Below, piece after piece: positions 23,498 to 58,558 of a stretch of DNA of 64,000 nucleotides. The stretch is from Moniliella sp. 'wahieum'. Lineage: Eukaryota. The stretch spans positions 124,001 through 188,000 of the forward strand of contig RSEE01000039.1 in the NCBI GenBank assembly GCA_003971905.1, read 5' to 3'. The position numbers and the translations under genes are program-made. How positions within the stretch are numbered: the stretch's first letter is position 1; each line of letters opens with the position of its first letter. A model generated the notes under the pieces. That model had not been told where the DNA came from. It saw only the letters and a program-made list of their open reading frames with translations, and did not search any database.

Positions 23498-25503
<2,006 letters not shown>

Positions 25504-36400: not shown

Positions 36401-36869
36401 TGGGCACACGTGCATGAGGTGATTCTCTACAAGCGACATAACCCAGTTTACATTGTGTCTGACCGGAAAAAGGCCTGCTCAGTAGACCAACACTTTCTCA
36501 AGCGTCACCTCCATGGTCATCTGTCCACCTGGAATACATACAGTCCACAATGAAGGACTCCTTTTGGCTTTCTCGCCCCGATCCATATGACCACGGCTTG
36601 GTCCATGGCAACCTCACCGCCGGTATAATTTTCTGTTGTACAGCACTCTGTCGCTGCGCTCATCCCCGATCCTTTTATACACCTGGCCAGATGATTCCTT
36701 TCCTCTGTTCCTCGATGGTCCAACTGACCGATGCGAGCCACGTTTGCATGTCACGACCGCGGGATCCCCAAGATTGGTCTACTGGGATGGATTGGCCAGC
36801 TATCTCTCCCTCTCGTGGGTCGTACGCACGTAACAGTAGTGAGACGTTTCGCATGCGATCGCACAAGAT

Positions 36870-37390
36870 GCGACATACGACGCATCCCCATGGGGAAAGC
36901 GGAGTTGAAATGTGCAATGCGAGCCCGCAGCGCGGTCGTCGGTACGCCGACAAAAAAGCTCGGCTGGAGACGTGGCCCGATGCACACAGGGCACCGGGGC
37001 AGTGAGCTGCGGACCTTCCACGAGCTTCCCCTGGCCTCCACCCCAGGAGCCCATCCAGGCCCATAGCTCTCGCTCTCCTTGGCTCTTGGATTCCATCTCC
37101 ATCCCTCATCGCCGGCATGTGGCCGTCGGTACGCCACACGGACGCTCTTCAACGGCCAACCGACGATTCTCCTCATGTTGCGGTCAAGGTATGTTCCATC
37201 TCTCCTCTCCTCCTCTCCACTGATCTAACCCTTCCATTTCGGCCAGGTACCCATGTCCTTCACGGCACGGCCTACCCTTTGGTTGGACCTCTGGCGTAGC
37301 AGAATGGAGGAGACAACCTACCTCCCCAAGTGGAGCCGTGACGGAGCACGATCCGTCGGCCTGGGCCGGTTTGGCCACCGGGGAATTCAG
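36870..37390 (+). repeat. Diverged paralogous segment, copy A; matches 44152-44260 and 45195-45452, including a shared intron
   Basis: Shared catccccatgggga..gcggagttgaaatgtgcaatgcgagcccgcagcgcggtcgtcggtacgccgacaaa and tgttgcggtcaag|gtatgttccatctctcctctcct..ccactgatctaacc..cag. Confidence 0.85.
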
Positions 37391-38316: not shown

Positions 38317-38497
38317 TGTCACAGTCGGGGCTAAGGCGAGGGAGACCAGGATCGGACTAGGCCAAGGGGTGTAGCAATCGTTCGTGGGGAAGAAGCAAGA
38401 ACAGAGGACATGGTGCGAAGTGGAAGGAACAGGGAAGGAGCGAGACGCTCGAGACGAAGAAATTGGAAATGGGAGCGAGATCAGCCAAACTATGACA
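38317..38497 (-). repeat. 3' LTR (181 bp)
   Basis: tgtcacagtc...aactatgaca, adjacent to the polypurine tract. Confidence 0.96.
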
Positions 38498-38539
38498 TTG
38501 CCCCCTTTCAGACCTCATCTCCCGGGCGGCGACGGAGGC

Positions 38540-40484
38540 GAGAGAGGGCGAGTCGGCGGGCATGGGAGACAGGCTTATCGGGTGGGTAGAGGGCGTGGAA
38601 ACGGACCACTGGCTCGGCGTCATGAGACATGTCCGCAGCGGGTACCCACTCCCGCTCGTGGACAGGATAGCCCCGGAAGTGAACAAAGTACTCAATGCGG
38701 CCACCACGACCCTTGCGGCGAGAGTCGAGGACATGTTCAACCTCGTGATGAACCGCACCATCATCAGCATACTCGGGGAGAGGAGGGGGGGCTCAATCAA
38801 GCGGGCAGGGACCACGTCACCAGGGGTGTAGGCTCGCAAGCGGGACACATGGAACACGTCATGGAGGTGTAGGTAGTCGGGGAGGCGGACCTGGTATGCG
38901 GCGCGGCCCACGGCGCGGACAATGGGAAAGGGGCCGAGGTAGCGATAGTCGAGGCCGTCAGAAGGCCGCTGGCTGGCCACATAGCCGTCCCGACGGAACC
39001 AAGACAGGCTGGCCAGCAGTGAAGGAAGCCGCCTCGGTGCGCTGCTGATCGGCATAATTTGTAGCGGTCTTGGGCCGCGGCGAGCGTGCGGCGGGCCACC
39101 GCCTGGGCCGAGCGCAAGTCCTCCAAATATGACGCAGCATCGGGCACGGGCGAAGTGGAGGGCTCCAACTCCCCCGGGGAGAGTAACCATAGGTGAGGAC
39201 AAAGGGGGACTGGTGGGTGCTCGAGTGGGAGGACGAGTTGTAGGCGAATTCGGCCGTGGGGAGGAGGTCGAACCAGTTGGACTGCTGCTCGTCGAGGTAG
39301 CAGCGGAGGTGCTGTTCGAGGATCTGGTTGAGTCGCTCAGTCTGGCCGTCCGTCTGGGGGTGGGACGCGGTGCTGAGGCTCGACTTGATGCCCAAGTCGG
39401 CACACAAGGCTTGCCAGAAGTGGCTTGTGAAGGTCGGTCCCCGATCACTCACCAGATCCCGGGGAAGGCCATGGTAGCGAAAGACATGGTGTACAAACTG
39501 GCGTGCGAGCTGGGGCGCAGTGTCCGTCGTGTGGGCGGGAATGAAGTGACCCATTTTGGTACAACGATCCACCACCACCAGAATCGCGTCGTAACCATTG
39601 GATCGGGGAAGCTGGGTAATGTGGTCCATCGTCAAGTGGGTCCACGGGCCTTGGGGAGGGGAAAGGGGCTGAAGGGGTCCGGCGGGTTGGTGGCAAGGCG
39701 CTTTGGTCCGTTGGCAGCGGTCGCACGAGCGCACGTAGGCCCACACGTCGGCTGACAGGCGGGGCCACCAATATTGAGCGCGGACACGGGCCAACGTCTT
39801 GTCGCGCCCTTCATGGCCCGCCAATGCCGAGTCGTGGGCTTGGTGGAGAATGGCAGCGCGGATCGGCCGGTCGCCGGGGACGTAGACCTGGTTTCCGTGC
39901 CACAAAAGACCGTCGCGGACCGTCAAAGCATGGGGAGGTGGGCTTGGAGCCGTAGCAAGGGACCAACGAGGGTCACGAGGCACGAGTTGGCGGATGCGCT
40001 GTCGAATCTCGTCGGCAGACGCTCGCTCCACCACCGGTGTATCGGGGTCCGCCGCCATGAGCTTGAGGGCGGCGGCAGAACGTTCGGACATGGGCTCGGC
40101 CAGTACTTGAGGTGCCGCGCCAGCGGGCCGGGAGGGAACCGAGGAGGGAAAAGGAATCGAGTTGACAGAGGGGGGCGAGATGGGGTTAGATGAGGAGGTG
40201 GACTTGGGCCGGGGCCGGGCGAGTGCTGGTGCTGGTGCGTAGTCTTGGTCTTGGGCTGGTCTGGGTGCTGGGGCTGGTCTTGGGGCTGGGGCTGGTCTTG
40301 GTGCTTGGGCTGGTCTTGGGGCTGGGGCTGGTCTTGGGGCTGGGGCTGGGCTTGGGGCTTGGGCGGGAGTTGGGGCTTGGGCGGGAGTTGGGGCTGGGGC
40401 TGGGCTTGGGGCTTGGGCTGGGCTTGGGGCTTGGGCGGGAGTTGGGGCTGTGGCCGGGGTACAGTCGTGGAAGGCATATGGTGA
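38540..40484 (-). CDS. Pro/Ala linker, retroviral-type integrase (HHCC, DDE core, GPF/Y) and chromodomain; 3' part frameshifted
   Basis: AHDSALAGHEG..YWWP..SCDRCQR; TMDHITQLP, VSDRGPTFTSHFW, HPQTDGQTERLNQILEQHLR; YLGPFPI..LHDVFHVSRL; HEVEHVLDSRRKGRGGRIEYFVHFRGYPVHEREWVP. Confidence 0.93.
40225..40450. repeat. (GGGGCT/TGGGCT)n hexamer minisatellite inside the LTR element; G-quadruplex-prone on the plus strand
   Basis: Visible array gggctggggctggtcttggggct..., encoding APAPRP/AQAPSP in the integrase frame. Confidence 0.9.
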
Positions 40485-41660
40485 TCACGGCACTGCGCCT
40501 TGAGCGCGGCGCTCGGTGCGCCGGGGCCGCTTCAGCGGTGGCGGGTGACTGCGCTGAGGTCCATGGGCTCCGCTTCGGGCGACGAGGGCCGAAACCAATG
40601 ATTGCCGCCCGATCCCGGGGAGATGGCGGTACCATGAGCGCCCAGCGATTGCGATTGGTCGATGTCAATGGCCGCTGTGCGCAGTTGTTCGAAACTGATC
40701 CGTCCCAAGTGAGCCGACTCGCCGCGGGAGGCGATTGCGTCACGCACCCGCGGCTTCAAGCCGTACAGAAAGCAATAGTAGCGGTCCTCATCCGACGCGT
40801 TGGGGTTCCAGCGACGCAGCAGAACCGTGAACGTAGCGGAATAGTCCGCTGCAGATCCCGTCTGCCGAAGACGACGAAACTCCTCAAACGCCTTCAGCGC
40901 CGGGTTGCGCTCGCCCCACTGCTCCAGGAAAGCTGCGCGAAACGCAGGCCAAGACTGGAGGGCGGGTGTGGTGCGCGCCTCCAGGGGAAGGGCCACCTCC
41001 GAGCCGAACTGCTCGACCCAAGTGAGGCCTCTCCCTGCAGCAGGCCCATGAAGCGGTCGATCCATGCCGCCGCGCCCATATGCGTGAGGGCGACGCGCGC
41101 GTAAATCTCGAAGGAGGTGACGACGTGCTGGGCCTGGACCGGTCACGAGAGTTGGGATTCGCACCAGACGACGGGCGGAAACGAACGGGCTCGAACATCT
41201 TAGGCTCTTCCGACACCGTGTTCGGGATGGCAGTCAGATCACCATAAGGCCCAGGGGCGGGAGCGGGGGCGGGGGCCGAGGACACCACGCCAGTTTGAGC
41301 CTCCCGTACCGAGGCGGCCAACCGGGCCTCTTCCGCGGCAAGCGCCGCCTCCTCCCGCCGCTGACGGAGGCGGTGCTCACGGCGCTTCGCCTCTTGCTCA
41401 TCCTCGAAAGCGCGGCGCTTCGCCTCTTGCTCATCCTCGAAAGCGCGGCGCTGGTCCTCCTGGGCTGCAAGGTAGGCCTGATTTTCCCGGGCCTCCGTCA
41501 ACAGAAGCTGGCGCATTCTGCGGGCCTCATCGACCCGACGCTGAGCGGCCTCGAGGCCCAGCCCGGACAGGTCGGAGGCAGGCAATGTATACCCCGGGGC
41601 GCGGGCGCAACAGACGGAGCTGCATGGGGGGGTCCAGAGGGGCCAGCCGGGTGGAACCAC
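40470..41660 (-). CDS. Gag: coiled-coil N-terminus, Retrotrans_gag domain, EPMDL motif and degenerate zinc knuckle
   Basis: RRAFEDEQEAK twice; SWPAFRAAFLEQWG..AFEEFRRLRQTGSAADYSATF..FLYGLKPRVR; EPMDLSAV; ERRAQG..HDC. Confidence 0.88.
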
Positions 41661-41832
41661 TCCGGGCCATCGTCGTCGAACGGAGCGTCAGAGGGGGGGT
41701 CGGACGGGGGTCGGATTGGGCCGCGCCGCGCGATGGGTTGCGGCGCGCTAGGGTACTGGGGTCAGGGGGGGTTGTCGTGGATCGAGGACATCTCTGGTCG
41801 GGCTCGCCTGTTGACGGTTAGACGAACGATAA

Positions 41833-42017
41833 TGTCACAGTCGGGGCTAAGGCGAGGGAGACCAGGATCGGACTAGGCCAAGGGGTGTGTGTAGCAATCG
41901 TTCGTGGGGAAGAAGCAAGAACAGAGGACATGGTGCGAAGTGGAAGGAACAGGGAAGGAGCGAGACGCTCGAGACGAAGAAATTGGAAATGGGAGCGAGA
42001 TCAGCCAAACTATGACA
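41833..42017 (-). repeat. 5' LTR (185 bp) followed by a self-priming-type PBS at 41822-41830
   Basis: Matches the 3' LTR. The minus-strand PBS ATCGTTCGT is complementary to ACGAACGAT inside the LTR (41897-41905). Confidence 0.93.
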
Positions 42018-44151: not shown

Positions 44152-45452
44152 GTGTGACATGTGGCGCATCCCCATGGGGAACGCGGAGTTGAAATGTGCA
44201 ATGCGAGCCCGCAGCGCGGTCGTCGGTACGCCGACAAAGAGCGCGGCTGGAGAGACTGGCTCGCTTATGCCGTCATGCCCAACACTCGCGCCATTGCCCA
44301 CCACCATCGCCACCACGCGGATCGACTTGGGGATGGAATGTGCGAGCGGTGCGGATGAGAAGCCATGCGACGCTTTTGGCGGCCCCTGCATGACCGCCTC
44401 CATCTGCCTCGCCGATTCTCCTGGGCAGCGGCAACGGCGGATGTGAAAGCCCCAGGCCAGGTGCCGGCGAGTGACCCAGCCCCCGTTCGTGGTCCCACGA
44501 GGCCCAAGTCAAAAGGACCACCGGGCCACATGCCCACTTGTCCAACCCAGATTTCCAAAAGGTACGTCGAACCGCACAGGCCAAACCTTTCCGGTTGGTT
44601 GGCGATTGGAACGTGCTAGATCAAGGCTATGTGTGTCTGATCGAGAAAACGCGTTTGATTCTGTACGCGCAGACCGGAAGAAGATCGATCGCAGCCGGAA
44701 ACGGAGGAGAATGGAGCTTGTCCCTCCTTCGTCTGAGAAACGGGGGAGAGGATCAGGGTACTTGTGATGGTGGCGAGCAGCCCACACATGCAAAAGCCCA
44801 TTCATCAAGGGGAGACATTGTCCCGCAGCGGAGCTTGAAAAGGGTGCGCCCGACCTCTGGCCATCAGCCTTGAGTGCCCGATGGGAGGCCCGCCCCTAGC
44901 GTTTCTTGGGATGGGAACCCATGTGGTATTACGAGCACGCAACGACAGGACCCGACCGACCCGGTGACGATCGCATTGGGCATGGCAGAGGGGGTGAGGT
45001 GGCACGGACCACTTCGGTGGGGACGATCTGTTGGGGACGACGTAAGGTGCCAATGCGAGCCGCTTCAATGCTGGCGACCGCCGGAAGAGGGTGGCCGGAC
45101 CCAGTCGGTGCGAGCCGGCCCATTCAGTCTTGGTTGACGGCGGGGGCACGGAAAAAGTGAAGCTACTCCGGCGCATACATGCTCGTCGCAGAACATGGGC
45201 GCTCTTCGAAGGCCAACCCTCGCTCTCCTTATGTTGCGGTCAAGGTATGTTCCATCTCTCCTCTCCTCTGTCCACTGATCTAACCTTTCCATTGAACAGT
45301 GGTCTTCTCTTCTTGATTGCCAAGTATGTCCGTCGCTTTTGGGGCTATGGCGTTCATCAACAAGAGGCAGAACGGATCAGAAAACGTACCTCCACAATTG
45401 GAGCTGCGACGCCGCACGATCCGTCGATCTGGGCGGTTTGGCCACCATGGGA
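44152..45452 (+). pseudogene. Diverged paralogous segment, copy B (longer); intron-containing gene remnant of unknown family
   Basis: Homology to 36870-37390; intron GTATGT..CTAAC..AACAG at about 45246-45299. Confidence 0.55.
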
Positions 45453-47083: not shown

Positions 47084-48919
47084 CTGCTTTGGAGCTGATC
47101 CATAGGATCGCGAGTGCTCCCGAGTCGCACTCTGGCATACCGACGTAATTTGGTTTCCATGCGAAATGAACCCCAATTTCGTGTGTCTCCGGCTTGACTT
47201 ATGTCAACTTGACCAGCAGTGCCCCTCTCAGTTGATGGCTTTGCTTTGCTGGGAAGCGGCCCAGGCGAGCGCTGGGCGCTGGCTGCGGTCCGACCACCTT
47301 CGTCAGGCGGGCCATGGACGACCCTCTTTTGAACATCTGGAGGGCGCGTCGCACTACTCGCGTGCCTCCACCCAAAGCCAAAAGTACTGTCGCATCCCGT
47401 ATTCCTGGACCTACTCCGCCCGCGCCCCACGCCGCCAGGTCTCTCGACCTTGACCTGGACCTCAGTCTCAATCTCGACCTTGATCTTAATGATCTGAGCT
47501 TGAGTGGCCGTGACCTTCGTGGTCCCTCACCTCCTTTTGGCCACCCGGCTCCTAGTACCCTTCCTGGTCACCAACACCACGATGACCGCGTGATGACGAA
47601 CCCGGCGATGGCGATGATGCATTTACTTCCTCTACACCTTTGATTCCGTTCGCGGACCTGTTCCGCGCGCCCAGCCCGGCGTCGCCCTTGCCCGTGCGCC
47701 TTCTCCTCGCTCGACCAAACCAAAGACCCTTGACATGTCGCTGTGGACCAAAGAAATGGAGAAGTCTCTGCCTCCTCATGCCTGTGCCTACTGCGGTTTG
47801 TCCAACCCCGAGAGCGTGTTAAGTGTCTCGTGTGCAAAAAGTGGTTCTGCAATGGTCGCACCCCCCTTTCCGCGAGCCACATCGTTAATCATTTAGTCCG
47901 CTCTAAGCACAAGGAGGTGTGTCTCCATACCGAGTCTCCCTTGGGAGATATGACACCCGAATGTTACAACTGTGGCAACAAGAACGTCTTTATTCTCGGT
48001 TTCATCCCCGCCAAGAGCGAGACAGTGGTAGTCTTGCTTTGTCGACAGCCGTGTGCATCGTTGCCAAGCAGCCCACCAAGGATGTGATTTGGGACACATC
48101 TCGCTGGGCGCCGCTCATTGGGGACAATGCTTTCCTTACATGGCTCGTCAAGGCCCCTACCGACTATATACTGAGATGGTGCAGGCTCCCAATCAGGGAA
48201 TCACGTTTCACCAAATGAACCGTCTTGAAGAGCTATGGAAGGAAAATGCCAAGGCGACACTCGAGGACATTGATAAGCCTGGGTTGGATGAAGATCCGCC
48301 GTGGATTCTGCTGCGGTACGAGAATGCGTTCCAGTATCAAAACATCTTGGGCCCGCTCGTCAAAATCGAAGCTGATTACGACAAAAATTGAAGGAGTCGC
48401 AGACCCAAGAAAATGTGACGATTCGTTGGGACCAAGGACTCAACATGCGAAAGGTGGCATGGATGTCGCTTCCCAAACTTGAGTCGGGCGAGGTGCGCCT
48501 GGCCGTGGGTGATGAACTGAAGCTCATTTACCGTGGAGGCAATGCACCCAATTGGGAGGGCCTTGGCCACGTGATCAAGATCCCGCGTAGTGCGTATTCT
48601 CTCCATCTTTGCAGCAGTGGGGGGCGACTGGTGACTGACATATGAACCGGCTGCTAGACATCTCGGACGAAGTTGCGGTCGAGCTGCGCCGCTCCGATGG
48701 GGTACCCGATCACTGCCAATTGGGCTTCTCTGTCATATATTTGTCTGGAAATCCACTTCATTCGACCGCATGCAGACCGCTATGAGAACGTTCGCCGTGG
48801 ATGAACAGTCCGTCTCTGCCTTCATTTATCACAAGCTCCTTGGCCACGAAGTGGAGAATGTCTTTCTTCAAACCGCTCTTCCCAAACGTTTATCTGTACC
48901 TGGCCTGCCCGAGCTTAAC

Positions 48920-51900
48920 CACGGGCGGGTGTGAAAAATTAATATTTTGCTTAGATGACACATCACCCAAAAATGCGTGAAATTTGGTGCGGAACGTTTT
49001 TGGCATTGTGGCCACATGAGGTTAAGCGCTTTGGCCCAAGAGGTCAAGCGCTTTGGCCACATGCGCTCAATGGCCTTGGCCACATGTGCCCAAACGCTTA
49101 GCTGTTGATTGGATGCGTGCTTGTAGGCTCTCCAGCCGGCTGGCTGGCAACGATCCAGAACTACTAGATTTATAGGCAGGGTAGGTATTTTTTAGGTATA
49201 GAATGCATTCGAAGATCGCTGGGAAGCGATGACACGGCAACCACGGTTAATAGATGTGACGTCAGACGGAAGCACCACAACGTAGTAGAGCAGCGAGCGG
49301 TTCAGAAAGTGGCAGGTTAGTGTGAGGGGAGTGCGCACTAGGGAGACGCTGGCCAAGTCAGCAGCAGCATAGGGTTAGCGAGAGACACAGAAAATGTGCG
49401 ACGGACTCACAGGTCAGGCGATCAAGACGGCCAGTAGCGAAGTCGGAATGCACACTGGTAGGGCGAACAAGGTCAGGAACAGCGTTGGCATATAACAGAA
49501 GGGACGTACGACGGCGAAACAGGTCAGATGAGTCTCGAGGCGAACCAGACGAGACGAACCAACCGTGGGATTCCGTGCATGCAGCAGCTGGGTAGACAGT
49601 GTCAGTGGCAGGACAACTCCAAGCGCGAAGTACGGGGGACGTACGATGGCAAGGCAGACCAGCCAAGCGAGAGGACCTCAGGCGAGGCAAAATGGAACCA
49701 GACGGACAAGGCCGAAGGTGAGCGAAACGGTGCATGCACGTCATGCATGCGACCCACCAGGTCAGCAGAAGTGTGGGGAATGCGGAGGAAGCGGGCACGT
49801 ACGATGGCGCTGCGGATCAGGTGAAACGAGGGCAAGATGGCCCGCGAGGGGGAGTCTGTGTAGGCGGGGTCAGCAACAGAGAGCGCTGGTGGGCAAGAGA
49901 ACACATACGACAAAAGCAATGCAGACAGTGAGAGGGGACCGGGGCGAGAGGCAGAGGGGGCGTTCAACAGCGATACTGACGAGGCGAGGAGGACGGAGTG
50001 TGGGGGGAGGGGGAGTGGAGACGTACGGCAGCAATGCAGACCAGGCGAGGAGAACCGAGCGATGGGGGCGGGACTAGCAAAAGGCGGTCAGTAAGCAGGG
50101 CAGGCAGCAACGATGGTGATGTTGATGTCCAGGGGAAGAAGATGGTGCTGTTGCACCCGTGGTACAGAGCACTCTGCGTTGTGCTGGCTGCAGAGATGGG
50201 ATACGGGTTGCTATGGGCGCAATGAGAGAGGCGGTGGTGAGGAGACAGGATGCAACCACAGAGGAGCAGGAGGTTAAAAGGAGGCGCGTGTGGCGCAGCC
50301 AATCTGTGCGCACAGGCCAATCTGGGCCACGCCAGGGGCCTAGGCAATCCTGGGCCACACCAGGGGCCTATAGGTAAGCTATTATATCTGCCTAACGCAC
50401 TATAGCGGCCTCCTGCAGCAGAGTGTTCGAGGGTCTAATCATCTTAATCAAGAGCGCCATTTTTTGACTTTGCCTATTTGCGACTTGCTGTAGTACTACT
50501 TGTCTGTTGCGACGGTGACTGGCTTCACCGAACGCGGCGCACTTGCGGCCTCTCTAGCCCCGAGACTCCAAGGGCTCCCCGAAGATTGCCGATGCGCGCG
50601 TAAGTAAACGACTAGTAGCCTTGTCCAATATAGCCCTCTCGTCCTGCTTCCTACCACCAACGCCTATATCTCTCGCCCGCAATTGATCGCCTACGCTACT
50701 GTCCCAAACGCTTCAGCATCCATTGCGGTCTCCATAGCCGGGTGAATCGTTATACAGGTCATGATAATCCTCACTTGAGCTATACTAGTGACTAGTGAAG
50801 ACTAGTGTGACCTATACGGTGTTACATTAAAAGTCAAGGCGATAGCCCCTGGTCGAGGTCAAGGAGCTCCGATGTTGTAACCATTCCATTTAGCTTTTGT
50901 GTTGGCTTTGTCCATGATCTCCGCAGCCCTAAGGTATATAGCCTCTGTTGCTCTTTCATGCACCCTTGTATTAGGCGTGTCGTTGGCTGGCGTATTCGAC
51001 CACCACACTGCCAACACTATAGTGCTACCGCATCACCCATCAGGGTGGCCATCTGGACTGCGCCACTCTCATCTTCAGATAGGGGATCATCGATCACGAA
51101 TGTAATACGCCTTGGAAGAGCATCAAAGAAGCGGGAGAGCGTGCGTCTCTGAGGGAGGGGGCAAGTTTTAAGGTTAGAGGGGAGAATGTTTAAGGTTAGA
51201 GAGGGGGGCGTCGTCTGCCGGACCGGCGTCAAAAAAGCACCCACCCATGCATAGCATATGTCCAACCCACCTCGCCCGTCCTTACCAAGTCGCCACCGCC
51301 ATGTCGAAGGCCATTCACGCCATTGACGAGGTGGCCGAAGATGCGAGCATGCCCCACAGCCACCTGACGCATGCTCGCCTTCCCCTGCTTCCCGTGTCCT
51401 CGCCTGTAGACACTACTATGGCCGAGGACGAGTTATGCCAGACGTAGTCCAGTGTTTCCTTTGGACCACCTTCAAGAGCCCACGGGCGTCGTGTCCTTTG
51501 CCGCCCGCGGGCGCATGACAACCCGCTCGGCGCACCGAATGAGCGTGTCGAGCAAATCCGCAACCAAGAGACTGATATTCATCAGCGATCTCAACACGGA
51601 GGGTATCCCTGGCGCAGAGGGCACCAATATCCGAGCTAGGGGTTTGTTGGCTAACCTAAAGACTGGGGTTGGGAAGGATGTGTGCACTATGCTTGTGGCT
51701 CTCCCATTCGCGGCAGTCTCCATCCTCGAGACCGGAAAAGAGGCCAACGATGAGGAGTTCACGTTTCCGATTTCGCGGTTTATGACGCTATCGTCGCGGC
51801 AGCCGACCTGCATGGTTTGTGTTGAGTATCGGACCACATCATCTGGATTTGAGACTCAACAGTTGGTTCGGTACTGGTTTGGTTTGTCCTGCTTTGTGGG

Positions 51901-53152
51901 CTAATCGACTTGGTGGTCTGAGCTACAAGGTTGTCTTGGCTCGAGTTATCTTTTCTTTCTTTTCCCTACTTGGCGTATAAGTAGGACGACCCCTCGCGGG
52001 TATACAATGCTATTCTTTACCACACCCACTCCCTTTGGCTTGCCTGATAGACTCCGCTACTCTACAGTTTGCTTCCCAGGACATGGTACCCGGCTGCCTG
52101 GCAGGCCAGGGCGCAGTTCATGGTACGTCCCACAGCCTTGATTGATATACGGGTTTAGACGCTGACATACCTGTTATGGCTAGAACCGTACCGGGCGACC
52201 CAGACTGCATACCGATTTGTCGAATGCCTTTCGAGACTCGGCCCCGACAACGCCATGATCGCGACGCGACCGAAGCTCCATCTCCTCCTGACGCATACGT
52301 CTGATGTGCTCGAATTGTTCGGCCCTCTCCAGAACAAGGACGCTGCCAGATTCGAGGGTCGCGTGAAGCACATCTATGCGTCCGTTGCCCATTGCAACTT
52401 CTACAATAAGCTCTCCGGTGACACCTTTTTGTACAACGTCATGATCTCCGAGAAGATTCTGCACCACTCTTCACCGGGTACGATGTGTCTATTAGTGATG
52501 GCTCGGTGATGGCTCGGCCTGGGCTCCTGCCGGGGTGCTGGAGCAATAAGGAGAAGAGCCCACTACGACTCTGATGGCGTCGATATTCCACGAGTAATGC
52601 TCGCCCCCAGCCATACAGCAACGAACGGTGCCATGCACCTGTGGACAAGCGCGCCAAGAAGAAGACACCTGCCGTGGCCGCTGTCGGAGGAGGGGGCAAC
52701 AGCGACGACTCTTCGGACAGTGATAATGATTGATGCGAGAACCAATGGCATGCATTGCGCGATGAGGATGAGTATAGGTTTGGTGGCAGTCGTCAGTCAT
52801 CAGTAGCCAGGCCATAGGGTGGTGCGCATCCCGGACCCATCAGCCGGAACCTCTCCATGGGCTGCGCTTTGACATGATGCGCATGCGCACATAAAAGCTT
52901 CTTTTGCCGGCGAACGAGCCGGGTGACGGATGACTATCATGCGTCCCACGCGCAGGGGCATGCCCGAAGGGAAGGGGCGGTTATGGAGTAAGAGGCCAGA
53001 CGGTGAGGCGTGGGTTGCAGCCCCAAATGGATGTCGCCACAAGCGTCGGATCTCTGGTAGGTACCTCTTCAGCCCCACTCCGGTTATGCAGCCGATTTAC
53101 CCATTTTCCAATCCCGCCATGACCCATGTTTCAATTTTTCACACCCCCCGTG
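48920..53152 (+). mobile_element. CACTA/EnSpm (CMC)-like DNA transposon, 4233 bp, with transposase remnants
   Basis: TIRs cacgggcgggtgtgaaaaatt and aatttttcacaccccccgtg; 2-bp TSD AC (48918-48919, 53153-53154); removal restores CTT AAC CAC GGA CAG (LNHGQ); subterminal ggccacatg and aagcgctttggcc repeats at about 49005-49090. Confidence 0.9.
51452..52509 (+). pseudogene. Fragments of a fungal EnSpm/Plavaka-like transposase
   Basis: LLANLKTGVGKDVCTMLVALPFA resembles the SLxGRDF..Q.APF block; YLLWLEP..RPKLHLLLTHTSDVLELFGPL..RFEG resembles the KFHxLxH..I.RFGP..FE block. Confidence 0.7.
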
Positions 53153-56100
53153 ACCACGGACAGGTGTTTGCCGTCAAGTCGGTTCTCCAACGGCCCGTGG
53201 CCTTAATCCAAGGACCTCCTGGTACGTGGAAGACAGTGACGAGTGCGACCATCGTGTACCATTTGAGCCGGATGAACCCTCAACCAGTGCTCGTCGTAGC
53301 GCCTTAGAACGTGGCTGTGGACCAACTAACGGAGAAGATTCACAAGACCGGTCTCAAAAAGTGGTGCGCTTGGCGCGGCCAAGAGTCGTGAAGGACTGGA
53401 TAGTCCAATATCCTTTTCGAAACTTCATGAACAGGTTCGCACAATAAGGGTCATATGCCGAGCTGCAAAAGCTGATCAGCTCAAAAACGAACAAGGCGAG
53501 CTGTCGAGCTCCGACGAGCGCAAGTACAAATCGCTGACACGTGCCTGCGAACGGCAATTGCTCGATGCCGCTGATGTCATCTGTACTACTTGTGTTGGGA
53601 CGGGCGATCCTCGGTTGAGCCAGCTCAAGTTCCGCACCGTATTGGTAGACGAGGCGACCCAAGCAGCCGAACCCGAGTGCATGATCCCACTCGTGTTTGG
53701 TTGCAAGCAGGTTGTATTTGTTGGGGATCATCTCCAGTTAGGGCCGGTGATTATGAACAAAAAGGCTGCCCGGGCAGGGTTGGCCCAGTCGCTGTGTGAG
53801 CGTCTGATTATGCTGGGCAACAAGCCGACTCGGCTGCAAGTCCAGTACCGAATGCACCCTTGTGCTTGTCTGACTTTCCGTCCAAAACATGGTTTACAAG
53901 GGCACGTTACAAAACGGGGTGACTGCTCCAGAGGAGGTACGCAAGAACGTCAACTTTCCCTGGCCCAATCCTTCATTGCCTATGTTCTTCTTCTCCAATC
54001 TGGGACAGGAGGAGATCTCTTCATCTGGTACTTCGTTCCTGAACCGAACCGAGGCGAGCAACGTCGAAAAGATTATCACCCAGTTTTTCCGATCCGGCGT
54101 AACTAGTAACTCCAGACCAAATTGCGGTCGTGACGCCGTATGAGGGCCAGCGGTCGTACGTGGTCAACCATATGCAACTGCATGGTAAGCTCAAGAAGGA
54201 ACTCTACAAGGAAGTCGAGGTGGCGTCCGTCGATGCGTTTCAGGGGCGCGAGAAGGATTATATTATTCTGTCGTGCGTGAGGAGTAACGATCACCAGGGC
54301 ATTGGCTTCTTATCGGATCCGCGGCGTCTGAACGTAGCGCTGACACGAGCCAATTATGGGTTGGTGATCCTGGGGAATCCCAAGGTGCTCTCTAAGCATC
54401 CGCTGTGGTATCATCTCCTTCAACACTTTAAGGCGCAGGGACTCCTGGTCGAGGGAGTGTTGTCCAACCTGCAGCCAAGTATGATTCAATTTACTCGCCC
54501 GCGTCGGCGGCTGCAACAACCCGGCGACTTGATGGCGCGGTACCGTCATGAAGTGGCGTACGATCACTCGGCCCATCCTGCTATGCAGATTGCAGCAGCG
54601 TGGAGTTCCCTCTTCCTATGGGATGCCCAATGGAGCTCCTTCGTCATTTGCCGTGCCCAGCTACCCGCCGAGTTTTGCCATGGGCCCGCCCAGCACGGTG
54701 GGGAGTGAGTTTGACACGCAGTCGATCGCTTCGCTCAACACGCAGGGCTATCCGTCGGCGCATTTGCCCCCCTACGTATCGGCAGCAGGGTTGGGCACAT
54801 CCTCGCTTGCAGGCTCTTACGTCGAGCCAACGCATCATCAGACGCATGGGCCTGCCTATAGCGCCACTCATCGACGCAAATATGCGCCCTCGAGCTATGC
54901 CCCAGCCTGGCCGACACGGAGGACTAGACAGGTTCGTACAGTCAAGCGTATGCAGCCCCTAACCCTTAACCGATTGATCGCTTGGACACCGGTACGATGG
55001 GGCGGGACCGAGCATTTGAGGGCAGGGGGCTGGACTTGGAGGAGGATAGGCGGTCGACGTACTCGGTGAGTACGTCCCAGGCCCTCCTCACATGTTTTAA
55101 CCCGGACTCCGTAATGGTCGCTGCGAGACGCGAGAAAGAGCTGGCTAGATCCTCAGGCGGCGCTCTGTTGCCAGAGCAGAGTGAGGGCTGGGCTAGTCTT
55201 TGATGCGCCTTACCATATACCAATCTCTCGGCATTGGCCAGCTAACCCTTTCCCATCGATGAGATGCGAGTGGCGCTGGCGATTGGGCGCGCCAGTGGCC
55301 GATGCGTGTTGTGTGCTGCTGACTCGGCGCTCCAGCAGAGCGCATGCCCTGTGAGTTGGACTGCCCAGCTGACGCCATTGGGTGGCCTGACTGAGGCCAT
55401 CCGCGGCGCACGTGTGGCGACGGCTACAGATGTTGGCTGCTTGGCGGCATGGCTGCTGATGAGATGGGTCGGCCTGCAATGGGACATGGAGGGAAGAGCT
55501 GAAGTTAGAAGACCAATTGCGTTGGTGCAGCGGGTATCATAGGGGAAGCCAGGAATCAGTGACTAGTGAGGGGCGATGGATGCTCCCGTGGCGGGTGACC
55601 TGCTCTGAGCGAGTCGCGATGGATCATCACGTGATGGGAGGGCGATGGAACGCCTGAGAACGATCCCACGCCCGAAGGCCTCGTGGCGCGACTGGGGCTG
55701 GGCCTGTCTGGGCGGAATGGGGCAGATGCACCGGCTGGCGGAACGCCACCCAGGCTGGATGCCAGGCAGAGGGCGAGTGTTCGTGGCGGCCAGCCATGGC
55801 TTGCGATGCTCCAGCAGCCGTCATCGATTCATCGATTCATCGCCCATCGCCAGCCCCCGTGTCGGTGCGGTCGCCATCGCCATCGCCGCCGCCTCCACCT
55901 CACCCCCACCATCCGCGTCCCACCCACTGTCTGGCTGCCTTTCCCTCTGCCCATACACCACCACCACCACCACCGCCACTGCTTCTGCCCCCCCGCCTTC
56001 CGGCCCCACCTGCTACAGCCCCCGCCGCTGCCGCCCTCCCCCGCCCCCGCCCCTACCCCTTGGCTGGAGCGATGCCTGACTCGGCCCGCCGACCCAAGCT

Positions 56101-56194: not shown

Positions 56195-58558
56195 ATGTAC
56201 TCCTCCCCATCCGCAAGCCCCGCGCCCCAGGCTGCGTACCTCTCCTACCTCAACCAGCAGCACGGCTCGGCCGCGGCCGCTGCTGTTGCCAGCCAATTCC
56301 TTCCCCATTCTCATGGTCCTGCACCTGGAAATGCCTCGAGCACCATGGGTGCCAACGGACTCTATTCGCGCTATGTTGGTGCCAACAACTCGGGTAACGC
56401 TGCTGCCTGGCCTGCCCAGCGCACGTTAGCCGGTCAAAGCGGACATCAAACCTCCTCCGTCTTCCCTCGTTGGTTCTTCTACCAACGGCATCCCAGGATC
56501 TCCTGTCAACTATGCTGCAGTCCACACCTCTGCGGCCAACTCCAGCGCCCGTAACTTCCCTCCGCTCAACTCTCCCCGTCTCCTCACCACCCAATCACCC
56601 GCTCATTCCCACGTACCTAATGGCAACAGCGTCTTGTCCCCCGCGGTGATCAACTCGCCCCACTGGAAAGCTCAGAAGAAGGGTGCCGACGTATGTGCTT
56701 CCTCATCTGCATTTGTAAGGTCAACTTAATACTCACTCACCTTGGCCGTTTCAGATCTCTCGCCAATCCGGATCCCCGCATCACCATGCTCGTGCGGCTG
56801 CCACGGCAGCAAGGACCGCATCGAACGTGGTGGATGCGTCCAAGGCACTTCTCCCGCCAATGGACTTCGTCTTGAGGCAATCAAGCCATCCGGAACCACG
56901 CCGATGCCGAGTTCGGATGAACCCGCCAGTTCGCCAGCGAAGCGAGCCACGATTCCGGGCAAGATTCCTCCTCGAGAGGTGGACGAAGACCAGTCTTGGA
57001 CCCAACTCGATTTGGGTGGCATGCATCTTCGTGCCTTGGCCCCGGAGCTATTCCGCTACGATTTTTGACGTCCCTCTTCATTAATCACAACGACCTGACT
57101 GCGCTGACTCCCGAGATTGCCAAGCTCAAACACCTCGAGGTGCTTGACGCGTCGCAAAACCGATTGACACTCCTTCCCCCGAGCTGGGTCTCCTGCCGGG
57201 GCTGAGGGAGTTGTACTTGTTTGACAACGCCATCACTGTTCTGCCCCCTCAGTTGGGAATGCTGTACCAGCTTGAGATGTTGGGGATCGAGGGCAACCCG
57301 CTCGACTTGGAGCAGCTCGCAGAGATCCAGCAAGAATGGAACGGTTGCTCTCATCCATGCCCTTCGGGACAAGAGTCCCACCTTGCCTGAGCCGGCCAAA
57401 CGAAAGTGGATCAACTTGACGTCGGAGGCTGAGGGGAACGAGGACCAAGATGAGGAGGCCATTTCTCGTCTGGATGAGCCCGACGACCGAAGCGAGACGT
57501 TGAGTGTGATGGGCTACAATGTTTTGGCGGACAAGTTGGCGACGGAAGCTATCTTTGGCTACACACCCTCGTGGGCTCTCCAATGGGACTACCGCAAGGA
57601 GATCATTGCCAAGGAGATCCAACAGCTGGGGGCGGACATGGTGTGTCTCCAAGAGGTCGGGATGCAGCAATACGACGAGTTTTTCGCGCCGTTGTTGCAC
57701 ACGTATGGCTATGCTGGTGTGTACTATGCCAAGTCCCGAATCAAGACGATGCGTGACGAAGAGAAGCGTCGGGTGGATGGGTGCGCTGTCTTTTACAAAC
57801 GGGCCAAGTTCCATATGGTGGACAAGTTCGTGATTGAGTATGGCCAGGCGTGCCTCCAACGGGCTGACTTCCGTGCGAGTGAGGACGTCTATAACCGTGT
57901 TATGCCCCGCGACCAAGTTGGCGTCATCTGCTGTTTTGAGTACCGCGACACGGGGGCCAAGCTCATTGTGGCTAACACTCACTTGCACTGGGACCCGGCC
58001 TATTCCGACGTTAAGCTGGTTCAGGCTGCGATGCTGATGGATGAGCTGCAGAGAGCGGGCAAGGTGTTCTGTAAGCGCAAGACGGACGTCACTCTCCCTG
58101 CTGGTGCGGTTGCGCCGACGTATGCCGATGGCAATGCCGTACCCACCATCCTCTGTGGCGATTTCAACTCGGAGCCGAGCAGTGGGTGTTTGAGTTCCTC
58201 CAGTGGTCTGTTGTCCGGCCAGCATGAGGACTTTTTGGACAAAACCTATGGTGATGTGACGGGTAAAGGGCTGCAACATGGGCTTCCGCTCAAGAGCAGC
58301 TACGGCGCGGTTGGGGAGCTGCCGTTTACCAACTTCACCCCAGGCTTTGTGGGGGTGCTGGAATACCTGTTTTACAGCACCGACACGGTGGAGCCCACTG
58401 CGTTGCTAGGACCTGTGGACGAGGAGTATGCAACAAGGTGCGTCGGCTTCCCCGACGCACACTTCCCCTCGGACCACATCCCACTTGCGGCCAAGTACCG
58501 TATCGGGCTACCTTCGGACGCCAAGGTGGTCCGTCCGGCGCCGGCCTCCTCTGCGTAA
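56195..58558 (+). CDS. CCR4: CCR4 deadenylase (LRR plus EEP nuclease); intron about 56691-56753
   Basis: WTQLDLGGM..LAPELFRY..FLTSLFINHNDLT LRRs; MGYNVLADK..FGYTPSWALQWDYRK..CLQEV; ANTHLHWDP..DVKLVQ; CGDFNS; FTNFTPGF; FPSDHIPL. Confidence 0.96.

Follow-up and report, generated by a model that had tools for sequence, protein, structure and literature searches.

UPF1 is the core gene of nonsense-mediated decay (NMD), the cell's disposal of faulty messages, and it is dispensable in several fungi. In functional Upf1/Nam7 proteins, such as those of Ustilago maydis (UM00237, PMC4749658), Saccharomyces cerevisiae (Nam7, PDB 2xzl) and human (UPF1, PDB 2xzo), a CH zinc-knuckle domain is followed by an SF1 helicase core and a serine/glutamine-rich (S/Q-rich) tail. 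CNEST, an EnSpm-like transposon of Cryptococcus neoformans that belongs to the CMC supergroup, is ∼7.2 kb long, has terminal repeats of 33 bp and duplicates TA at its target sites (PMC12810828). We analysed a 64,000-nt stretch of GC-rich fungal DNA (the window) from Moniliella sp. 'wahieum' (contig RSEE01000039.1, positions 124,001 to 188,000), in which a UPF1 copy with the same domain order as the functional proteins occupies positions 47314–55101 of the plus strand. Unlike functional Upf1/Nam7, this copy is split by a transposon, has tryptophan in place of the P-loop glycine, carries a nonsense codon in helicase motif Ia and contains about 15 frame breaks. The locus is very probably a genuine, non-processed, transposon-disrupted UPF1 pseudogene in an indel-noisy assembly. 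A working Upf1 cannot be made from it.

The copy extends from the ATG at 47314 to the native stop TAA at 55099–55101. Its two halves, both on the plus strand, were delimited by tblastn and by a protein-to-DNA aligner that allows for frameshifts and introns, run with six UPF1 guides after removal of the transposon. The 5′ half (47314–48919) encodes an N-terminal low-complexity region and the CH zinc-knuckle domain and continues to ...PELN; the 3′ half (53155–55101) encodes the SF1 helicase core (Pfam AAA_11 and AAA_12) and the S/Q-rich tail, and ends with the TAA at 55099. The zinc-knuckle domain, which binds UPF2, matches Pfam UPF1_Zn_bind (PF09416, E = 2.6e-41, 47734–48084). Among the 120 protein matches listed, all those with a name are UPF1/Nam7-type helicases and the rest are unnamed or hypothetical, while all eight PDB matches are UPF1/NAM7. 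Identity to the named Ustilaginomycotina orthologues is 70–73%, versus 89% to a sister protein (P0004, 698 aa, C-terminal part only), whose final residue aligns to the codon just before the native TAA. P0004 most likely comes from another species, because the collection that contains it offers no better match to the neighbouring CCR4 gene than one of 78% identity, and an open 450-aa CCR4 frame from the species of the window would be expected to match at near 100%.

A phase-1 GT..AG intron of 68 nt (48590–48657, plus strand) was placed with all four full-length guides that cover the site, and the metagenome relatives L001, L003/L004 and L007 share the break point (P0030 residue 401/402). The copy thus keeps a conserved intron and is therefore no retrocopy, so that a processed pseudogene is ruled out.

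The element that splits the gene is a 4,233-bp terminal inverted repeat (TIR) transposon at 48920–53152, with TIRs at 48920–48940 and 53133–53152. It lies directly after the AAC codon for asparagine (48917–48919) and before the CAC codon for histidine (53155–53157), in an exon that has no intron at this place in the relatives. The insert has CACGGGCGGGTGTGAAAAATT at one end and an almost exact reverse complement of it at the other (94% complementarity over 17 nt), and none of 100 shuffles of the window contained a match to the TIR motif. A 2-bp target-site duplication, AC, can be read from the sequence at 48918–48919 on the left and 53153–53154 on the right; when the insert and one AC are taken out, CTT AAC CAC GGA CAG is obtained and the LNHGQ motif is restored. 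The alternative target-site reading, a 5-bp ACCAC duplication with a truncated left end, retains some plausibility. Another decayed element of this genome is reported to have CACGGGCG ends.

No transposase family was detected in the insert: its frames of at least 110 aa have no Pfam match at E≤0.001, its 63 frames of at least 45 aa have just three weak, sub-threshold matches at E≤0.05, and an Atlas search with two of its frames gave no match for either. The element is therefore non-autonomous at best. Contigs from a food-metagenome run (X1) that correspond to 48866–53302 of the window contain copies of the insert that are 90–95% alike, with a summed contig depth of up to ∼31, and include a short form that skips 49050–52949. 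The insert is thus a member of a mobile family that includes deletion derivatives and that at least one further organism also carries. With CNEST (PMC12810828), the insert has in common TIRs that start with CACGG, a 2-bp duplication and insertion into an exon in a basidiomycete. It differs in its length (4.2 kb versus ∼7.2 kb), in its duplication (AC versus TA), in its matching ends (∼20 bp versus 33 bp) and in having no detectable transposase, and the likeness rests on the ends and the duplication. We regard the insert as CMC-like and as probably a non-autonomous derivative of a CNEST-like element.

Several point changes affect residues that are otherwise kept throughout the family. In the Walker A motif the codons GGT ACG TGG AAG ACA (TGG at 53227–53229, plus strand) encode GTWKT, changing GPPGTGKT to GPPGTWKT, and the motif GxxxxGK[ST] is not intact in the window. 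The P-loop glycine is needed for ATP binding, and it is present at this position in all 86 full-length UPF1 orthologues compared, in the sister protein P0004 and in human UPF1 (2xzo). An in-frame TAG (53305–53307, plus strand) replaces the serine of motif Ia (APSN), a residue found in 86/86 orthologues as well as in P0004. The phenylalanine of SLFERL, equally invariant in the 86 orthologues and P0004, is a cysteine (TGT at 53795–53797, plus strand), giving SLCERL, and an AAT codon stands at 54352 (plus strand) where the orthologues have lysine (73) or arginine (13). A second in-frame TAG is probable in the C-terminal tail (54925–54927, plus strand), as placed with guides P0004 and P0013, in a region where the frame is less certain. 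The insert between the N and H codons, GPPGTWKT, AP-stop-N, SLCERL and the change at 54352 had been pointed out in the original prediction, and all of them are present where it had placed them. Change resembling repeat-induced point mutation was considered and set aside: the readable changes, GGG to TGG, TCG to TAG and TTY to TGT, include no C-to-T transitions.

We compared these substitutions with those of two neighbouring genes, HSP70 (23501–25425, minus strand) and CCR4 (56880–58558, plus strand; a local control). For UPF1, columns invariant in the 86 orthologues were assessed, leaving out any residue three positions or fewer from a frame break. The window copy differs at 16 of the 216 assessable columns. 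In a leave-one-out analysis of the orthologues themselves the median was 0 and the mean 1.55, and only one of the 86 had a higher count. HSP70 differs at none of the 234 columns invariant in 81 orthologues (Fisher's test versus UPF1, p=6e-6).

The sister protein made it possible to assign changes to branches. P0004 is 88.9% identical to the window copy over 691 codons and ∼95% identical in the helicase core. In a relative-rate test with P0004 as the sister and seven outgroups, restricted to sites at which the outgroups are unanimous, 18 changes were specific to the window and one to the sister among 421 sites (p=8e-5). The helicase core gave 12 versus 0 at 384 sites (p=5e-4), and the tail, where the alignment is weaker, 6 versus 1. 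The same comparison for CCR4 with its two closest proteins gave 4 versus 3 and 4 versus 4. These symmetric CCR4 counts indicate that the local substitution error is low and therefore that the UPF1 excess is real. Judged from these counts, there is no sign of purifying selection on the conserved UPF1 residues since the split from the sister.

On the window branch 3.1% of conserved core residues have been replaced, from which, by our own arithmetic, we infer a neutral nucleotide divergence of roughly 1.4% (about 1–2%) since inactivation. A divergence of this size predicts, by our calculation, about two stops in 1,100 codons, which is the number observed, together with a few real indels.

The frame-breaking indels have to be read differently. 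The conserved parts of UPF1 contain ∼15 of them (∼4.5 per kb). There are five single-base deletions (47816, 48383, 53438, 53475 and 54902) and eight 2-nt insertions (48073, 48165, 48735, 53356, 53373, 53455, 53861 and 53884), each of the eight being a duplicated adjacent dinucleotide or an extended base run; frame breaks in the 5′ half also span the region 48165–48199. Two longer insertions were found, both on the plus strand: 13 nt at 54580–54592, from the frameshift-aware alignment, and 7 nt at 54099–54105 (GTAACT-AG-TAACT), recovered as +7 with all six guides and with boundaries placed within 54099–54111. By eye, the latter begins with two bases that mirror the CT before them and ends with a second copy of the TAACT just upstream, at a T-N-A site in a former coding exon. 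Near-tandem repeats of period 7 are more numerous in the window than in simulation (86 observed versus 55), as are those of periods 5, 6, 8 and 9, hence there is no signal specific to 7. Some of the UPF1 indels are grouped 17–23 nt apart (53356–53374, 53438–53476 and 53861–53885), with the correct frame between them, a pattern that a rough calculation places marginally beyond chance (∼p=0.06).

With the same aligner, HSP70 has eight single-base deletions and two 2-base insertions in 1.9 kb (5.2 per kb) and no stop, while CCR4 has two single-base deletions and one single-base insertion in 1.7 kb (frame breaks at 57066, 57182 and 57334), again with no stop. The frameshift density of UPF1 is no higher than that of HSP70, and the frameshifts are therefore no proof of decay here; we rejected their count as evidence. 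Insertions of 2 nt or more (+2, +7 and +13) do make up a larger share in UPF1 (10/15) than in the controls (3/13; p=0.03). The indel noise is not spread evenly over the window, since long frames of 450, 755 and 382 aa are unbroken from ∼57.35 kb on. The original prediction had described the lesions as insertions and substitutions, as opposed to the indel noise of other genes. That description holds for the lesions it named, but UPF1 in addition carries ∼15 indels at a density like that of HSP70. Its claim of a true pseudogene is borne out by the transposon and by substitution decay of a kind absent from HSP70 and CCR4.

In the history that we propose, a CNEST-like cut-and-paste transposon entered the exon in which the code for the helicase core begins. 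From then on the copy drifted without selection, unless its decay was already under way by that time. The decay removed the P-loop glycine, brought at least one nonsense codon, changed about 12 universally kept UPF1 residues and added at least one insertion, that of 7 nt.

To map the surroundings of the gene, each of the 267 open frames in the window that reach 110 aa was scanned against Pfam. Upstream lie a WD40 gene (7.4–8.8 kb, minus strand), RPL10 (10.6–11.1 kb), POM33 (13.8–14.8 kb), TFIIF-beta (15.0–16.6 kb), HSP70, a DHHC gene, an aspartyl protease and a Ty3-type long terminal repeat (LTR) retrotransposon (38317–42017), which reads on the minus strand and contains gag, integrase and a chromodomain region that is SH3-like. 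The LTRs of the Ty3-type element are 100% identical over 185 nt, bar a 4-nt difference in a GT run, and an 18-nt tandem array lies inside it (40181–40486). The element is flanked by two dispersed repeat pairs (86 nt and 45 nt, 94–98% alike) at 36869–37212 and 44153–45268. Two copies of a different repeat family, or of an element split by the LTR element, could account for them. On the strand opposite to HSP70, at 23619–25470 (plus), Pfam reports matches to NAD-GH (PF10712), which we take to be the known antisense-of-HSP70 artefact of that family and no gene.

Downstream of UPF1, proline-rich open frames that begin after ∼0.5 kb lead into CCR4, 1.8 kb away, followed by a 755-aa frame, a SEC59-like frame and FIP1. 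The neighbours CCR4, SEC59 and FIP1 had been called apparently intact; for CCR4 this is so only after allowing for assembly noise (its three frame breaks), and SEC59 and FIP1 are Pfam matches on open frames only. The best named relatives of the UPF1, HSP70 and CCR4 pieces are from Ustilaginomycotina (Ustilago, Tilletia, Thecaphora, Testicularia and Violaceomyces), and a few unnamed proteins are closer to the three than these.

Some observations weigh against a true pseudogene. The assembly is error-prone: HSP70 with 10 frameshifts keeps every invariant residue, most of the UPF1 frameshifts may therefore be technical without our being able to say which, and the insert and the stop are known from the assembly alone. 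Twelve residues of the 3′ half are odd, and five of them (the G of LNHGQ, for example) are common to P0004 and are lineage traits; at the other seven, including the Walker A glycine, the serine at the stop and the phenylalanine of SLFERL, P0004 is ancestral. Six of the 18 window-only changes fall in the poorly aligned tail, and polarisation covers the 3′ half only, because P0004 lacks the N-terminal half. Dense frameshifts in otherwise perfectly conserved neighbouring genes would also fit an assembly artefact, in which the organism has an intact gene and the lesions are consensus errors or the product of a chimeric join. We nevertheless consider an artefact very unlikely, since the errors in the control genes are indels and not substitutions (HSP70 0/234; CCR4 symmetric), 12 versus 0 at conserved core sites does not resemble random error at the control rate, and a chimeric join would not give matching inverted ends together with a 2-bp duplication whose removal restores the codons exactly. 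The substitutions at conserved sites, exceeding those of HSP70, CCR4 and the sister, are why we regard UPF1 as a real pseudogene. Alternatively, the isolate might be diploid or dikaryotic, with the dead allele in the window, for instance within a region that does not recombine, and an intact one on its second haplotype. A stretch rich in transposons (the LTR element at 38317–42017, the TIR element and the dispersed repeats) is typical of low recombination and would fit, but the Pfam scan of frames of at least 110 aa revealed no mating-type gene in the window and the neighbouring CCR4 and HSP70 show no decay; we hold this to be very unlikely.

The original prediction had raised the possibility that the lineage lacks NMD, with a dead duplicate as its own alternative. 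In the first case the pseudogene would be the sole UPF1 and would have died in place, leaving the fungus without canonical NMD or with a UPF1-independent substitute. The copy looks like a native gene in several respects: nothing is missing between its ATG and its native stop, its intron is still there, its position ∼0.5 kb upstream of proline-rich frames running into a CCR4 under constraint is what a native gene would show, and its nearest relative is a sister-species protein with which it has derived residues in common. On the other side, the upstream flank is repeat-rich, and the metagenome relatives L001, L002 and L003/L004 show no UPF1-CCR4 adjacency: nothing over the 3–9 kb downstream of their UPF1 matches CCR4, the 755-aa frame, the SEC59-like frame or FIP1, although at ∼75–87% protein identity they are too distant to settle whether the locus is native. 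We found nothing in the literature on the U. maydis genes adjoining UM00237, and a search of PMC6173133 for phrases on UPF1 loss gave no match. A search of sequencing runs with the window listed one run that shares words with it, the food metagenome X1 (7% of words), and no RNA run; the X1 contigs cover only the transposon, plus traces on conserved UPF1 parts, and are silent on the gene, its expression and an intact allele. According to PMC5709506, UPF1 is kept in almost all of 312 eukaryotic genomes surveyed, and for this reason we judge a working UPF1 elsewhere in the genome, with the window copy a dead duplicate, to be more likely than NMD loss. That the pseudogene was the only UPF1 of its lineage we consider unlikely.

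For this error-prone genome, the analysis offers a usable way to tell decay from assembly noise: neighbouring genes serve as controls for relative-rate tests and for substitution counts at invariant sites, and frameshifts are not counted. The solid result is the more modest one, a well-documented pseudogene of a core RNA-surveillance gene. Were the window copy the sole UPF1, then a smut-related basidiomycete that is free-living would have done without the central NMD helicase for a long time (∼1–2% neutral divergence), and this natural NMD-null fungus, whose sister species keeps UPF1, would give a rare view of how cells cope without NMD.

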